64,000 bases of DNA. Origin: Eledone cirrhosa (Eukaryota). Every line of letters begins with the position of its first letter. Position 1 is the stretch's first letter. Location: positions 407,960,001-408,024,000 of the forward strand of contig OZ024740.1 of the NCBI GenBank assembly GCA_964016885.1, given 5' to 3'. The notes beneath the pieces are model-generated. The model was not told where the DNA came from. It saw only the letters and a program-made list of their open reading frames with translations, and made no database searches. Made by a program: the position numbers and the translations under genes. Shown one piece after another: positions 34,993 to 51,330 of this stretch.

Positions 34993-35510
34993 ATGTAGGA
35001 GGTGAGTTTTATTGTAGTACAATAAAGCAATGCAGATATTTTTTTTTTTTTTTTCATCCTTTCCACCCCCCCCTCTCCCTAAATAAAATACTTTTTCCTC
35101 GCACATATCCTCCTTTCGTTGATTTTCAAAAATTTTTTTGGGGTTTATACATTATCTTCCAACGGTTTTCAACCTCTCTGTGTCAGACAGTATATCTCCT
35201 CTCAGTTATAAAAGCTATCTCTTTCTCTCTATCACCCATCTCTCCCTCTCATCTCCTCCCCTTTTTCATCCTTTCCACCCCACCCCCTCTCTAAATAAAA
35301 TATTTTTCCCAATATCACACATCAATCTAAAACCACTTTTCATATGTTGATTTAAAACTGCACTATCCACAAGTGTTTTTTAGCCTTCATATCATGTTCT
35401 CCTGTTTTATCTGATGAAAACACAAATATTATTGCATGATGATGTTTGTTTTTGAAATGCGCATAATAAAATACATGGAACTCCTTTAACCATCTTTTGA
35501 TCTTATATTA
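34993..35510 (+). mobile_element. TA-flanked hammerhead element (long form of the 50634/50893 unit)
   Basis: Same start (atgtaggaggtgagt) and end (gatcttatatt) as the 50.6-51.1 kb units, plus ~300 bp of CT-rich interior. Confidence 0.85.
35403..35473 (+). ncRNA. type I hammerhead ribozyme
   Basis: Stem I UGUUUUAU/AUAAAAUA; CUGAUGA; ~15-bp stem II; GAAA; palindromic stem III AUGCGCAU; H17=A. Confidence 0.85.
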
Positions 35511-35559
35511 TATATATATATATATATATATATATATATATATATATATATATATATAT

Positions 35560-36010
35560 CACGATACATTAACGGAGCCATAGACTCTCGCCGTTCCCTG
35601 TAAATAATGTGCTCTAAGGAGAGGAAATCCTGGGCACTTTGAAATACAATATGTTGAAAAGGTAACACACTAGAGAGAGATACAGTGCGGCACCAATAAT
35701 ACAGGGAAAAAACCACCAGTGTATGGAATCTATAACCTATGAAAGGCAGAGTATAGACACGATAATTAAAAATATAAATTAAAGCGTAAATAAATACCTC
35801 TATAACTATATAACACATGTACAAATCACTTTGGATTTGTACGTGTGTTATATAGTTATAGAGGTATTTATTTACGCTTTAATTTATATTTTTAATTATC
35901 GTGTCTATACTCTGCCTTTCATAGGTTATAGATTCCATACACTGGTGGTTTTTCCCTGTTTTATTGGTGGCGCACTGTATCTCTCTCTAGTGTGTTACCT
36001 TTTCAACATA
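35560..36010. mobile_element. TA-flanked snap-back palindrome (177-bp arms)
   Basis: 35650-35827 is the reverse complement of 35834-36010, with a 6-nt loop and a 90-nt unpaired extension on the left. Confidence 0.85.
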
Positions 36011-37063
36011 TATATATATATATAGTTACCGAAGAGGGCCATCTTTTCAGCGTTGTGTTAAACAGTTATTAGCCTGCGAATGATTCCACAAACCTGCCTC
36101 ACTCCTGCACACTATTTTACAGATGTAACCTGTTCCTTATGCACTCTCATGAGTCCAGCAGGTTTTTAAATCAAACCCATCTTTAATCTCTACAATTGTT
36201 TCTGTACAGATGACAGATGTGTATACAATGAATCAATCTGATGCAATTAATAATCATTCACAGAGTATAAATCTTTACATGAATTTCTTCAGGAGTGGGA
36301 AAGAAAGTTAATTTACCACAAGTAACAAGAATATAAGCAAACAATGAAAGAATGCAGAAAACAGATGCAAGTAGAAAAATGGTAAATAGAGGGAAATAGT
36401 ATTTTTGAACTTGTGAAGCGCTTAGCCATATAGGTTTTTGGTGTAAGCGTTAATTATATGATGGTATAGCAGTAATATCATGTTGTAAAAGATGGAAAGA
36501 GAAAAGTTAGACTATCGAAAATCAAAGAAATTGCTCCAGAATGTGAAGTTATTAAGCTCATATATACTTGAATATAACTCCCCACCACAACTTTATGTCT
36601 GATAAATAGGTGAACATCCAAACCTTGTTTATAAACTGAGGCAGCTAATCAGCACATTGTTTAGATGGCGTATATAAGCTAACCTCCCATTTTACCATCG
36701 ATTTTTTGGTCACCTATTCCTTCGCTTATATTTGAGTATATAAGATATATTTTTAGTACAGATTAAAAGTTTGAGAAAACAATTTCAGCTTTCTTTCTAA
36801 AGTGGGATCTTCTGTAACTGAAATATATCAATCTGTGGTTGCAGATATAAATATTTTCCAAAAATAGAAATACTTAATGGTAACACATGAAAACATTCAC
36901 TTGAGATACAGTAACTTGTATGCAAAGAGAATAAAAGAGATCTAATTACATCATTAATTGAAGCATGAACAATAGCCAAATATTTTCCTACTGCTTTGTC
37001 TGAAAAAACTAAGATACTGAGGGTATTGATGATACTGACAATGGTGATGATGATGGTGATAAT

Positions 37064-37395
37064 AATAATTGTTTCTATTTTAGGCACAAGGCCAGCAATT
37101 ACCCAGTGCATTACTGGTACTTTATTTTATCGACCCCGTAAGGATGAAAGGCAAAGTCAACCTCGGCGGGATTTGAACTCAGATCGTAAAGGGACGTAAC
37201 TATGCTGGAAAGCATGGCGTCCGACCCTCTACCGATACTGCCAATCCAATGATAATAAACATATTATAATTGTTTCTACTTTTGGCACAAGGCCAGCAAT
37301 TACCCCAGTGCATTACTGGTACTTTATTTTATCGACCGCGTAAGGATGAAAGGCAAAGAGAACCTCGGCGGGATTTGAACTCAGATCATAAAGGG
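37064..37395 (-). mobile_element. SINE family A, full copy plus adjacent truncated copy
   Basis: 37064-37245 is full length; 37265-37395 is 5'-truncated. Confidence 0.85.
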
Positions 37396-37945
37396 ATCAT
37401 AAACATATTATAATACTGCTTGTGTTTCATACATTTGTAACATATGTTACACTTTAATTACATACACACACATCTACACATAAATACATAACCAGATACA
37501 CAGACAATAGAAGTGCACACACACACACATCAACTCATACATATTCATAAATAGACACATTATACAAAATAATTATTACACGCACACACACATGTATGTA
37601 ATGATTGAGGAAGGAAGGGGCTGGTGAAACACTATAGCGATGAGCATTCCAAAATTAGCTACACTTGTGTGAGTGTATGTGTGTGTTTTGTGTGTTTGCA
37701 CATTTATATTTATATACTCATACATACAGTTGTAATGAATTGTGTGTGTGTGTGTGTGTGTGTGTACAGAGACATGAGAATATGAATGAAGAACAGAGAC
37801 AAATTATTTTAGAGCAAGGTAGACTGCGACAACAGGAGAGAAGAGATAATATACAACTAGACGAATGTCTTTTGAATAGTTCCTCATTATTTTTTTGGCT
37901 GTGGAATTACCACGGGTCTCGCTAATAGTAATAATAATAAACTGA

Positions 37946-38140
37946 TAATAATTGTTTCTACTTTTGGCACAAGGCCAGCAATTACCCCAGTGTATTACTG
38001 GTACTTTATTTTATCGACCCCGTAAGGATGAAAGGCAAAGTTAACCTCGGCGGGATTTGAACTCAGAACGTAAAGGGCCGTAACTCTATGCTGCAAAGCA
38101 TGGTGTCCGACTCTCTACCGATACTACCAATCCACCACCC
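37946..38140 (-). mobile_element. SINE family A
   Basis: Full family A sequence. Confidence 0.85.
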
Positions 38141-38511
38141 TGATAATAATGAAAAAGGTAAATATTCTAGAAGTAAAGACTAATGGTAGGCTATTTGTTG
38201 TTATACATAGATATGCACTTACAAGTGTGATGCATGTGCATCAAAGAGAGAGCTCTTCAATCAAGCCAAGAACATGACAGCCTCCCTATTGCTGTTGTCA
38301 CAATAAAATGCAACCAATACACTCTGTAAAGTGACTGGCATTACAAAAGGTATTCAGTTGTAAAAAAACATGATAAAACGAAATGTTCCTTCAACTCGTC
38401 TAGAATTGTAGCTCTGTAATGACCTGTCAAATCCATTCCAGCATGGAAAATTTGATATAAAATATTAATGTTGATGATATTTATACAAGATGTGCATGAA
38501 TTACATATACA

Positions 38512-49186: not shown

Positions 49187-49505
49187 CTAGGGAGTGATGA
49201 AAATATTCTTAACGTTTTGATATCTCTGTGCTGATATATTAATATCTGTTGTCTCTGTACAAAGGCCATATGTATTAATATGAATATGGAATGATTACAG
49301 AGTATATTCTATTTTATCTGTTTATTTTATCTGTCCATGTACATATATGTGCGCACGCATATATATATATATGTTTGTGTGGCTATAGTTCTGGATATGT
49401 TACAGATATGCATAATATTCTATACATGAACGATAATCATGTATGTGAGGGCAGGAATATTAATATATATTTTTATGTATATATATGTATGTATATATAT
49501 ATATA

Positions 49506-50518
49506 GTAAAATCTTTTATAACACAGGGAAAATTTTTTTCTGTGAAATAAGAAATTACAGAGTTGATCATGTAAGATCACAGGTATGTCTATAGTATCAA
49601 CTAGAACTTGAGATGACCTTCTCTTTTTCTCTTTCTTTCCTTTTCCGGAAAGTACATATATACTTATATATTTCCGTATTTTTTGAAGTTTTATCTCAGT
49701 TTTTAGTACATCGACCTAAGAATTTTTAAACTAAACATATGGTCATTATTTTTCACACATTATATATCTATGTCTCATTCATGAATATTGATATTTACAT
49801 TAAAATACCCAATTCATATGAATTGATAATTCAAATTGATAGGACATAACGTAAAGATGTAAATCTATCATCATATAGCTCTTTCTTCTCCTCCCTCTTT
49901 ATACATGATGAAATTTAAGTATCGGTTATTTTAACTTTGCCTCTCGAGCTTCTCTCTTGTTTTCTCTCTTACTTCTCTCCTATTTCTCCCACCTCCCCAT
50001 ATATAATTATTATTATTTGGTCTACCTCTTTTTCCCCCCACCTCTATCTTTCTCTATCTCTCTGTTTTCTCTTTATTTTTTATCTCTCTCCGTCTCCTTA
50101 ACACTATAACTAAATAATTACAGTACTCCCTCCCTCCTAAATCTCTCAATTTGTATGATGAATTATTATTATTCATCTGTTGCCTCAGCTGCCTCTCATT
50201 TTTCACCTCCTCACTATTTCTCTCTCCCCTATCTCTCTCTATTTCTCTCTGTTTTTCTTTACATACGTTTCTTCTTTTTCTCCGTCTTTCTTTTTAACTG
50301 TGCTTAACACTAAATATTTATAAACATCTCACTACCAAACCAACTTCTTACATAAAAGTTGATCAATATTTATGGTACGTCAAATTTATTTATAAAACTG
50401 CTTATATATTGTATTTTATCTGAAGAAGGCATGCCATATTTTTAATATGGTATCCCTGAAATATGTATAATGAAATAAATATGGTTTTACAAATATAGTT
50501 TCCATTTGTTTAATATCG
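49506..50518 (+). mobile_element. TA-flanked Penelope-like 3' region ending in a hammerhead
   Basis: Bounded by TA runs; CT-rich interior like 35050-35300; hammerhead 41 nt before the 3' (TA)n. Confidence 0.65.
50412..50477 (+). ncRNA. type I hammerhead ribozyme
   Basis: Stem I UAUUUUAU/AUGAAAUA; CUGAAGA; stem II AGG-AUGCCAUAUU/AAUAUGGUAU-CCU; GAAA; near-palindromic stem III AUAUGUAU; H17=A. Confidence 0.85.
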
Positions 50519-50746
50519 TATATATATATATATATATATATATATATATATATATATATATATATATATATATATATATATATATATATATATATATATA
50601 TATATATATATATATATATATATATATATATATAATGTAGGAGGTGAGTTTTATTGTAGTACAATAAAGCAATGCAGATATGTTGATATGTTGATTTAAA
50701 ACTGCACTATCCACAAGTTGTTTTTAGCCTTCATATCATGTTCTCC

Positions 50747-50817
50747 TGTTTTATCTGATGAAAACACAAATATTATTGCTTGATGATGTTTGTTTTTGAA
50801 ATGCGCATAATAAAATA
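50747..50817 (+). ncRNA. type I hammerhead ribozyme
   Basis: Same fold as 35403-35473. Confidence 0.85.
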
Positions 50818-51006
50818 TATGGAACTCCTTTAACCATCTTTTGATCTTATATTATATATATATATATATATATATATATATATATATATATATAATGTAG
50901 GAGGTGAGTTTTATTGTAGTACAATAAAGCAATGCAGATATGTTGATATGTTGATTTAAAACTGCACTATCCACAAGTGTTTTTTAGCCTTCATATCATG
51001 TTCTCC

Positions 51007-51077
51007 TGTTTTATCTGATGAAAACACAAATATTATTGCTTTATGATGTTTGTTTTTGAAATGCGCATAATAAAATA
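51007..51077 (+). ncRNA. type I hammerhead ribozyme
   Basis: Same fold as 35403-35473; variation falls at the stem II apex. Confidence 0.85.
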
Positions 51078-51330
51078 TATGGAACTCCTTTAACCATCTT
51101 TTGATCTTATATTATATATATATATCTATATATATACATATATATATATATATATATATATATATATATATATATATATATATATATATATATATATATA
51201 TATATATATATATATATATATATATATATATATATATATATATATATATATATATATATATATATATATATATATATATATATATATATATATATATATA
51301 CACACACACATATACATATATATATATAAT

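Follow-up and report, generated by a model that had tools for sequence, protein, structure and literature searches.

Introduction

Among EN+ Penelope-like elements (PLEs), the Hydra, Neptune and Naiad groups are known for a preference for (TA)n, a hammerhead within the pLTR, and insertions that include an inverted 5′-truncated copy with a tail at one end (Craig et al., 2021, PMC8557442). Octopus possesses both Hydra and Naiad families (PMC8557442). In Adineta vaga, head-to-head pLTRs of Penelope elements likewise join an inverted to a direct part, with an optional tail and microhomology at the 5′ junction (Arkhipova et al., 2013, PMC3846280). Poseidon PAc of Anolis carolinensis nicks and extends both target strands in vitro, with the template's 5′ end determining product length and the tail delimited by two internal RT start sites (Frangieh et al., 2024, PMC11167929). 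Metazoan non-LTR retrozymes are low-GC tandem units with one type I hammerhead each, and are derived from the PLE pLTR (Cervera and de la Pena, 2020, PMC7229834; Li et al., 2026, bioRxiv 10.64898/2026.07.22.740005).

Here, we describe a hammerhead-bearing unit present in three copies within a 64-kb window (the whole stretch analysed, 64,000 nt) of the Eledone cirrhosa genome. The initial annotation took it for a fixed-ended mini-element that may transport or seed TA microsatellites. A non-coding piece of a hammerhead retroelement tied to TA microsatellites is indeed what we find; the fixed-ended family gives way to an inverted tail piece fused at a variable point to a second arm. We consider it probable that each copy is the insertion scar of a (TA)n-targeting PLE family, and the scar is most likely of a type already known, namely back-to-back tail ends of a PLE in TA repeats.

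Results

Three copies of the unit

The three copies, their common ends, their (TA)n flanks and their hammerheads are all present as first reported. The long copy (34993-35509) is flanked by (TA)25 and (TA)28, and the short copies (50635-50853 and 50895-51113) by (TA)58, (TA)20-24 and a long TA tract. The starts of the short copies move slightly from those given initially, to 50635 and 50895, each preceded by a single extra A. By BLAST (MAFFT aligned the 47-bp piece in the wrong place), the first 47 and last 168 bp are common to all three copies, whose 168-bp bodies differ at 4, 3 and 3 positions. The extra CT-rich sequence of the 35-kb copy, estimated at about 300 bp, measures 302 bp (35040-35341). 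This part starts within a T18 run, contains an internal 49-bp repeat (35050-35098 and 35262-35309) and has thin, heterogeneous read coverage. The junction of the short copies carries an 8-bp duplication, and in the long copy ATAT at 35341-35345 matches the ATAT that closes the inverted piece. The features are as follows:

34944..34994, no strand: (TA)25 tract (target), flanking the long copy on its left side
34993..35039, minus strand: 47 bp from the distal end of the ~83-nt tail of the parent, in inverted orientation (from loose ends at 35039 and 35511-35518 and an opposite-strand joint of 35039 to 35516)
35040..35341, plus strand: CT-rich upstream part of the direct arm, long copy only
35341..35345, plus strand: site favoured by other genomic copies for the 5′ start of their direct arm (from the joint tables)
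35396..35481, plus strand: type I hammerhead of the long copy
35482..35509, plus strand: end of the direct arm, equivalent to the parent's first 3′ end, running into (TA)28 at 35509-35559
50519..50634, no strand: (TA)58 tract that short copy A shares with a second hammerhead family (49506-50518), at the 3′ end of the latter
50635..50681, minus strand: inverted tail piece of short copy A, 47 bp
50678..50853, plus strand: direct arm of short copy A, overlapping the inverted piece by 4 bp (ATAT), with the 8-bp duplication at 50678-50685 and 50686-50693; hammerhead C3 at 50755, predicted cut after 50809
50853..50894, no strand: (TA)20 spacer separating the tandem copies
50895..50941, minus strand: inverted tail piece of short copy B, 47 bp
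50938..51113, plus strand: direct arm of short copy B, junction as in copy A; C3 at 51015, predicted cut after 51069
51108..51328, no strand: long TA tract, right flank of the pair

Hammerhead motif

Each copy contains a complete type I hammerhead core. In the long copy, C3 lies at 35411, the core comprises 35411-35417 and 35454-35457, and helix III is short and palindromic; helix II is long, with about 15 pairs and one C.U mismatch. The predicted cut, after 35465, falls 44 nt upstream of the first 3′ end, and the hammerhead is in sense orientation near the 3′ end, as expected of an EN+ PLE pLTR. A strict descriptor, composed after the motif had been seen, matched four sites in the window (the three copies and 50420) and none in any of 100 dinucleotide shuffles. 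An Rfam search returned no hammerhead at the gathering score or at E up to 10, and single-strand folds of the hammerhead regions alone were not significant (z from -1.1 to -1.9). Among the 40 of 90 read variants listed, all five on helix II pairs and the single one in proximal helix I keep pairing, one of three in the outer helix I extension breaks a pair, and none lies within the core.

Both ends of the unit match 3′ ends of a parent element

Public reads and contigs under three species labels were examined in four runs (X1, X21, X4 and X7), with small-share runs excluded; no RNA data set was among the sequencing runs listed for the unit. In these data the unit lacks collinearity with its parent, whose 3′ region runs from a CT-rich stretch through the hammerhead and a few TA-like bases (first 3′ end) to a structured tail of about 83 nt (second 3′ end); only some 7-9 TA-like bases separate the hammerhead arm from the tail. 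Reverse-complemented, the first 47 bp of the unit give the far end of that tail. Parent sequence continues past 35039 in 25 X1 contigs, 1471 X21 reads and one contig each of X4 and X7, and past 35511-35518 in 20 X1, four X4 and one X7 contigs; by eye, the letters beyond these two points are reverse complements over 24 letters. An opposite-strand joint of 35039 to 35516 occurs in 1164 X21 reads (16 starts) and one X4 contig. Most of those X21 reads probably come from one RAD locus, as 1142 end at 35456. TA repeats follow the tail end in 1224 X21 reads before 34993. Copies have one of two alternative 3′ ends, the 35509-equivalent base or a point about 83 nt past the short TA-like run, both at (TA)n. 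The tail exceeds the 30-40 bp usually given for PLE tails. In the inverted piece 34993-35039, the 3′ end faces left into (TA)n, and an 8-bp hairpin is seen on folding.

Since the first 47 bp are the inverted far end of the parent's tail, both "fixed ends" appear from sequence comparison to be 3′ ends, with an inverted tail piece fused to a 5′-truncated hammerhead arm. The fusion thus reads as an inverted 5′-truncated copy placed head to head with a direct copy, as in EN+ PLEs. Because the inverted arm stopped within the tail, no palindrome is visible and the unit mimics a collinear mini-element. The parent holds only about 7-9 TA-like bases there and hence offers no template for the long (TA)n. 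Relative to the hammerhead strand of the parent, the GTGAGT that resembled a 5′ splice site lies in antisense, and a similar motif occurs in just one of seven other tails; a role as splice donor was therefore dropped.

Junctions and the favoured 5′ start

The comparison of fusion points covers the rows listed, which give 15 of the 35 joints, 12 of the 19 that carry inserted letters, and 24 of the 255 loose ends. The 14 listed forward joints begin at 11 different positions of the inverted piece (35004-35039), and further forward joints include 3, 6 or 11 additional tail letters. Twelve of these 14 junctions fall on one body start, 35341-35344, where the RNA template may have its 5′ end. The direct arm also has 5′ ends at 35352, 35369, 35385, 35420, 35438, 35446, 35451 and 35455, with depth climbing toward the 3′ end. 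Random 5′ truncation, which would speak against fixed ends, is therefore found in part: the fusion point differs between copies, yet one start is strongly favoured. The exact short junction of the window is absent among the listed joints (15 of 35, and 12 of 19 with inserted letters).

The favoured start could instead mark the boundary of a short non-autonomous PLE derivative of about 250 nt, with 35342 and the tail end as its limits and the hammerhead between them, mobilised in trans, which would then be the direct parent; the fixed 5′ start would not reflect run-off at the start of a full-length element. In X1, X21 and X4, depth becomes some two to three times greater at 35342-35345, the CT-rich part being far thinner, loose ends occur before 35342 in X21, X4 and X7, and PLEs are known to have non-autonomous derivatives (PMC8557442). 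Nevertheless, all four runs include longer copies in which the CT-rich part is present, and the related family at 49506-50518 is also CT-rich upstream, as are the 3′ untranslated regions of longer elements. We regard such a derivative as rather unlikely, both as parent and as explanation of the start.

Neighbouring TA tracts

The design of the unit recurs in seven other inserts of the window (six found by script, one by eye). Inverted-plus-direct palindromes make up six of the 31 segments between TA runs, and by eye their extra tail is confined to one arm; the segment 32447-32583, also by eye, is a tail-only inversion resembling the 35-kb and 50-kb unit. Such ends adjoin 16 of the 34 TA runs of at least seven units. 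A tail motif has seven of its 14 matches near TA runs, in 8% of the sequence (p = 5e-5), an enrichment that is not independent, as the motif was drawn from the same sequences and one of the seven double-counts a palindromic site. Several unrelated families are strung along the same TA tracts, as expected if TA is the target. The family at 49506-50518 bears a hammerhead and has a long CT-rich upstream part too, and a second hammerhead-bearing tandem, of a different family, lies 700 bp from the pair. The likeness of the unit's family to that at 50290-50522 is borderline, as one of 300 shuffles scored equally high.

Discussion

Probable assignment to Penelope-like elements

EN+ PLEs are marked by a frame for a telomerase-like RT and a GIY-YIG endonuclease, joined to the terminal repeat. 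The 64-kb window contains no RT or GIY-YIG frame or convincing motif, and the assignment to PLEs is therefore made from the anatomy of the termini. Window motifs had no matches in metagenome and viral contigs, collections not expected to include animal genomes. None of six window motifs occurs in the published Naiad, Chlamys and Hydra consensus files (PMC8557442 supplement), nor either of two in a separate test against that supplement, and line breaks could mask a match in both. The terminal features are those of EN+ PLEs of the Hydra clade, Neptune and Naiad (PMC8557442): a type I hammerhead close to the 3′ end and in sense orientation, (TA)n on both sides, and an inverted 5′-truncated copy with the tail on one arm. 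The combination of (TA)n preference and hammerhead is found in the Hydra clade and also in Neptune, and hence is not diagnostic; Naiads, unlike the unit, lack canonical hammerheads. At the protein level, the marks of the Hydra clade are RWK, DKT and CxCX5C motifs, loss of CCHH and the RT phylogeny. By eye, the hairpin at the start of the parent's tail has a 2-nt bulge before a GAGY strand, as do the 3′ ends of Hydra-2_Ajap, Hydra-2_Amil and Hydra-1_Crog. In contrast, the hammerhead sequence differs from that of Hydra-1_Obim, and helix II has about 15 pairs vs. the 3-7 listed for Hydra elements. As no reading frame was found, we assign the unit to none of these clades. In the literature covered (PMC8557442 and PMC3846280 included; Repbase, Dfam and subscription journals lay outside it), we found no tail-only inversions, no run-off 5′ start and no bulged tail hairpin.

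As in Poseidon PAc, two 3′ ends bound a tail downstream of the hammerhead and the target is AT-rich (PMC11167929). The PAc starts differ in lying inside an ORF at an AC-rich stem-loop, 30-40 nt apart, whereas the unit's first end is a short TA-like run with no ORF start seen. The head-to-head pLTRs of Adineta vaga (PMC3846280) share with the unit an inverted and a direct part, the optional tail, 5′-junction microhomology and, within the pLTR, Inr-like motifs. In Adineta vaga the inverted arm extends over the pLTR and a palindrome results; here, it stops inside the tail.

A possible route of insertion

Given the in vitro behavior of Poseidon (PMC11167929), we infer a two-strand, two-start route for this unit. 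A PLE protein, acting in trans or cis, would nick the (TA)n tract; one strand would prime at the first start to give the direct hammerhead arm, and the other at the tail end to give the inverted arm. Both arms would stop early and be joined 5′-to-5′ over the 4-bp ATAT overlap, with re-priming adding the 8-bp duplication of the short form. Fold-back self-priming (PMC3846280) would be an alternative route to the same head-to-head product. It is further conceivable that 35341-35344 is the 5′ end of the PLE RNA, that the scars are run-off, strong-stop-like cDNAs from two starts on both target strands, and that the bulged tail hairpin common to distant families positions the RT; we advance this tentatively, at somewhat less than an even chance.

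The tandem pair is most simply a local duplication, which could have arisen later through the flanking TA tracts, either by unequal exchange or during repair synthesis. The 35039 breakpoint is common to the long and short forms, as are minority alleles, and neither is predicted by simple independent insertion. The two forms are probably linked by similar TA-to-TA copying plus an ATAT-guided deletion, which we somewhat prefer to two independent insertions; block copying of this single fused unit between 35 kb and 50.6 kb may have taken place.

The pair might also be an assembly artefact, since TA tracts are difficult to assemble and none of the read or contig records examined in the four runs spans the stretch. 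Against this, the two copies differ at three of 168 positions, copy B sides with the long copy against copy A at two positions, and the other-family hammerhead tandem lies close by. We therefore consider an artefact improbable.

The unit and retrozymes

Cleavage at successive hammerheads of the pair would formally yield a 260-nt monomer containing the TA spacer, as first pointed out, and TRF finds a period of 260 with 98% matches. Like metazoan non-LTR retrozymes (PMC7229834), the pair consists of 260-bp, low-GC tandem units with one type I hammerhead each. The monomer, 260 nt at 24% GC, lies within the retrozyme range of size and GC (150-450 bp, low GC), and two consecutive complete type I hammerhead units are the working definition of a non-LTR retrozyme in bioRxiv 10.64898/2026.07.22.740005. 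The palindromic helix III would permit a dimeric fold (PMC4209133), and the fused junction is common to loci 15 kb apart, with the 35039-to-35342 joint in three X1 contigs and one X21 read. That joint is, however, one of many variable ones and far rarer than parent continuation at 35039 (3 vs. 25 X1 contigs), and the sense-strand tail is missing from the fused unit. Unlike retrozymes, the unit joins its two parts head to head, includes a microsatellite within its period, is seen only as a dimer and seems to have little self-pairing besides TA: the folding advantage of the monomer appears to come from the TA block (z of -4.9 with it, -1.4 without). Helix II, with about 15 pairs and a mismatch, departs from the canonical 4 bp or so with loop 1-loop 2 contacts (PMC4209133). 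No unit-TA-unit joint occurs among the 15 of 35 joints listed, which weighs little, as a 41-bp TA spacer is hard to bridge. A self-propagating, retrozyme-like element of 220/260 nt, whose cut-to-cut RNA carries (TA)n and thereby seeds or transports TA microsatellites, is thus very improbable. It is a long shot, too, that the fusion became a second-generation mobile cassette, block-copied from one TA tract to another, first from 35 kb to 50.6 kb and afterwards in tandem, with the (TA)n of the 260-nt RNA priming reinsertion; if true, this would be a retrozyme caught at birth, multiplying TA microsatellites. Fixed ends within (TA)n would also suit a DNA transposon or MITE that targets TA, for example the Mutator-like MuTAnT (PMC4486113). 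This reading is extremely remote, as no copy has terminal inverted repeats, just a 19-bp internal hairpin, and the hammerhead, 5′ truncation and inverted junctions indicate an RNA intermediate.

Significance

As it stands, the unit is ordinary PLE debris, though instructive. Head-to-head fusions of this kind pass for mini-elements with fixed ends, and annotation will mistake them for SINE- or MITE-like families. For the mechanism of PLE insertion, thousands of contigs with a fixed pair of 3′ ends, one favoured 5′ start and variable inversions could serve to test two-start, two-strand priming in vivo on the scale of a genome. Moreover, since about half of the longer TA runs in the window adjoin PLE-type ends, PLEs may mould the microsatellite landscape in that they split and duplicate tracts, even if they seed none.

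Results

The window is rich in TA repeats and has the look of an animal genome. Three copies of the hammerhead-bearing unit lie in it, with common ends and TA flanks, as the initial annotation had described.

Copies of the unit
34993-35509, long copy, 517 bp, TA tracts either side
50635-50853, short copy A, 219 bp, TA tracts either side
50895-51113, short copy B, 219 bp, TA tracts either side

Within the window, BLAST found two blocks common to the copies, ~50 bp at the start and ~170 bp at the end, and detected no further copies of the unit. In TRF the tandem pair repeats at a period of 260 (98% matches), and the 168-bp bodies are mismatched at four (long/A), three (long/B) and three (A/B) positions. 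Each copy carries a type I hammerhead with a CUGAUGA core and GAAA. Its helix II is long and contains one C.U mismatch, helix III is short and palindromic, and helix I has 8 pairs and an outer extension beyond them. A strict descriptor, drawn up only after the motif had been seen, matched four times in the window (the three copies and 50420) and in none of 100 shuffles; an Rfam search did not recognise the unit's hammerhead. When 40 of 90 variant rows were compared with the fold, all five helix II pair variants listed kept a standard or G-U pair and the single proximal helix I variant kept pairing, while one of three in the outer helix I extension broke a pair, one fell in the loop and none in the core. 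This pattern is supportive, but not proof, of selection on the predicted ribozyme.

Four of 23 listed sequencing runs were chosen and aligned to 34985-35520: X1 (contigs, species label A, possibly the source sample), X21 (raw RAD reads, another sample of label A), X4 (contigs, label B) and X7 (contigs, label D). In all four, most records covering the first 47 bp run past 35039 into letters absent from the window (among rows listed, 25 X1 contigs, 1471 X21 reads and one contig each from X4 and X7). Right-end records (20 X1, 4 X4 and 1 X7 contigs) run on past a few TA-like bases (35511-35518), and the letters beyond are, by eye over 24 positions, the reverse complement of those past 35039. An opposite-strand joint of 35039 to 35516 occurs in 1164 X21 reads (16 starts) and one X4 contig; since 1142 of these reads end at one place, they probably represent one locus. 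TA repeats lie beyond 34993 in 1224 X21 reads. Taken together, the opposite continuations, the opposite-strand joint and the TA beyond 34993 give the 3′ order of the parent as hammerhead arm, ~7-9 TA-like bases, 36 bases, the 47-bp piece in reverse complement, and (TA)n. The unit is an inverted piece of the parent's ~83-nt tail fused to a 5′-truncated direct arm, and its two "fixed ends" both correspond to 3′ ends in the parent. The proposed fixed-ended mini-element is not supported, since its left 47 bp are inverted tail and fusion points vary between copies; in the parent, the splice-donor look-alike at its start is on the strand opposite the hammerhead, and one of seven other tails has it too. 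The parent's two 3′ ends (34993-35002 and 35500-35509) look alike, by eye, in the 8-mers that precede the TA run; these pair across the TA block in a computed fold, hinting at a common RT start signal.

The junctions were read from 15 of 35 joints, 12 of 19 joints that contain inserted letters, and 24 of 255 loose ends. Among the 14 forward joints listed there are 11 distinct starts within 35004-35039; other joints hold 3, 6 or 11 extra tail letters, and the inverted arm spans the whole tail in 155 X21 reads. Among the joints listed, 35039 to 35342 is found in only three X1 contigs and one X21 read, and the exact short-form junction of the window is absent. The direct side lands at 35341-35344 in 12 of the 14 forward joints and in five of seven forward X1 rows with inserted letters, among those listed; other 5′ ends are 35352, 35369, 35385, 35420, 35438, 35446, 35451 and 35455. 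This preferred 5′ start, in what we take to be an initiator-like context, is possibly a run-off cDNA end. Read depth, which is not copy number, is high on the tail and 35342-35510, climbing 3′-ward, and far lower over the CT-rich stretch. The 6184 X1 contigs aligning to 34985-35520 show the family to be clearly abundant.

A script recovered inverted-plus-direct palindromes in 6 of 31 segments (60-1500 bp, between consecutive TA runs), and sequence reading placed an additional tail on one arm only of each.

Inverted-plus-direct palindromes between TA runs, one tail-only inversion, and tails starting with a short bulged hairpin
17781-18594, palindrome; tail 17781-17848
32278-32426, palindrome; tail 32278-32356
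32447-32583, tail-only inversion resembling the unit (by eye); tail 32447-32527
32603-32798, palindrome; tail 32768-32798
35560-36007, palindrome; tail 35560-35652
55626-55820, palindrome; tail 55737-55820
62905-63074, palindrome; tail 62905-62970

The full form of the design is at 17781-18594, a 370-bp perfect palindrome with a hammerhead per arm, TA on both sides and a ~68-bp tail only on the inverted arm. Four inserts of 140-200 bp, related to one another and lying between TA runs (32278-32426, 32447-32583, 55626-55820, 62905-63074), combine inverted arm, direct arm and tail; by eye, their direct arms start inside a hammerhead and retain helix III, which is long and has a palindromic loop. 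In 35560-36007 and 32603-32798, also palindromic with a tail on one arm, descriptors found no canonical hammerhead; these are possibly Naiad-like, or carry a degenerate or different ribozyme. A hairpin in which a 2-nt bulge precedes a GAGY strand opens the parent's tail and several window tails, and three published Hydra consensus ends open with a like hairpin (both by eye); it is a candidate protein-binding element.

TA runs of at least seven units adjoin PLE-type (Penelope-like element) ends in 16 of 34 cases. Different families are strung on common tracts at 35.0-36.0, 32.2-32.8 and 49.5-51.3 kb, an arrangement consistent with (TA)n as a target they share. The 1-kb end of a second family (49506-50518) has a CT-rich stretch, then a hammerhead (C3 50420) with the same long helix II and mismatch at pair 4; it ends in a (TA)58 tract adjoining short copy A and bears a borderline likeness to the unit's arm, including the preferred-5′-start region. 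At 34682-34767, two ends of another family meet at one TA tract, as a 29-bp inverted repeat centred on (TA)15, and 34740-34943 may be a further fused insert.

Other features of the window
42416-44587 (+), long LINE-type RT frame, 723 aa, (TA)18 near start, presumably RTE-like by motifs
46074-48911 (-), long LINE-type RT frame, 945 aa, presumably CR1/L2-like by motifs
46104-46275 and 56288-56459, 91% inverted match
51338-51401, probable tRNA-derived SINE, its tRNA-like head (Rfam, 29.9 bits) directly following a long TA tract
51800-53257, tandem array between TA runs, 2.6 copies, unit ~560 bp, copies 98.8% alike, type I hammerhead per unit, cuts predicted after 51933, 52497 and 53056
56398-58106, 28 copies of a 61-bp unit originating in the 3′ end of the 46074-48911 LINE

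Discussion

The unit resembles an EN+ PLE terminus in how it works and shares four terminal features with such elements. For PLEs, Craig et al. (PMC8557442) describe an inverted, 5′-truncated copy in which one end bears a tail; hammerheads in canonical PLEs, Hydra among them; a (TA)n preference of Hydra, Neptune and Naiad elements; and Hydra and Naiad families in octopus. Membership of a PLE family is likely; the defining reading frame was not found in the window, metagenome contigs or viral contigs. Hydra-1_Obim was rejected as the family, having a different hammerhead sequence. Passages of an octopus repeat annotation count recently active PLE families and do not mention hammerheads (PMC13282606).

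According to Frangieh et al. (PMC11167929), a Poseidon protein nicks AT-rich DNA on both strands and extends each, starting at two internal sites that flank the tail; hammerhead cleavage is dispensable in vitro. By analogy, one nicked strand of a TA tract would prime the direct arm from the first start and the second strand would prime the inverted arm from the end of the tail, after which the two cDNAs, both truncated, would join; the short-form join has a 4-bp ATAT overlap, then an 8-bp duplication. Fold-back self-priming, proposed for head-to-head structures by Arkhipova et al. (PMC3846280), is an alternative route that the data do not separate from two-strand priming.

The long and short forms, 15 kb apart, have a common 35039 breakpoint and carry alleles in the minority among reads (e.g., G at 35444, ~39% of X1 depth and 21% of X21 reads). 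On these grounds we lean somewhat towards a single fused ancestor that was copied locally and underwent an ATAT-guided deletion, over independent insertions, for which the ATAT overlap would make 35039 a favoured join. The fusion may have been copied as a block.

The TA spacer inside the tandem period would need no RNA step, because any unequal exchange between tracts could duplicate a TA-flanked insert with one spacer. That the dimer acts as a retrozyme-like element and transports or seeds (TA)n, the second being the initial proposal, is very improbable. The dimer does satisfy a working definition of the non-LTR retrozyme, for which the same preprint proposes an origin in PLE terminal repeats (bioRxiv 10.64898/2026.07.22.740005), and cleavage at both units would formally give a 260-nt monomer that includes TA. 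The parent RNA, however, lacks any long run of TA that could be carried along; TA could still be added by slippage at the TA-like start or by tract duplication. Retrozyme circles are described as highly self-paired in one report (PMC7229834), whereas the 260-nt circle outfolds shuffles only via its TA block (z -4.9 with, -1.4 without), and helix II differs from the canonical 4 bp given in another (PMC4209133). Judged by sequence, the better retrozyme candidate would be 51800-53257, whose monomer, taken as a circle, gives a stronger fold than shuffled sequences do (z -4.4, 30 shuffles).

Literature searches, with Repbase, Dfam and most subscription journals outside their scope, returned no paper on the preferred 5′ start, the common tail hairpin or block copying. 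The unit is probably of a known kind, a PLE-type terminus, and the interest that remains lies in these three features.
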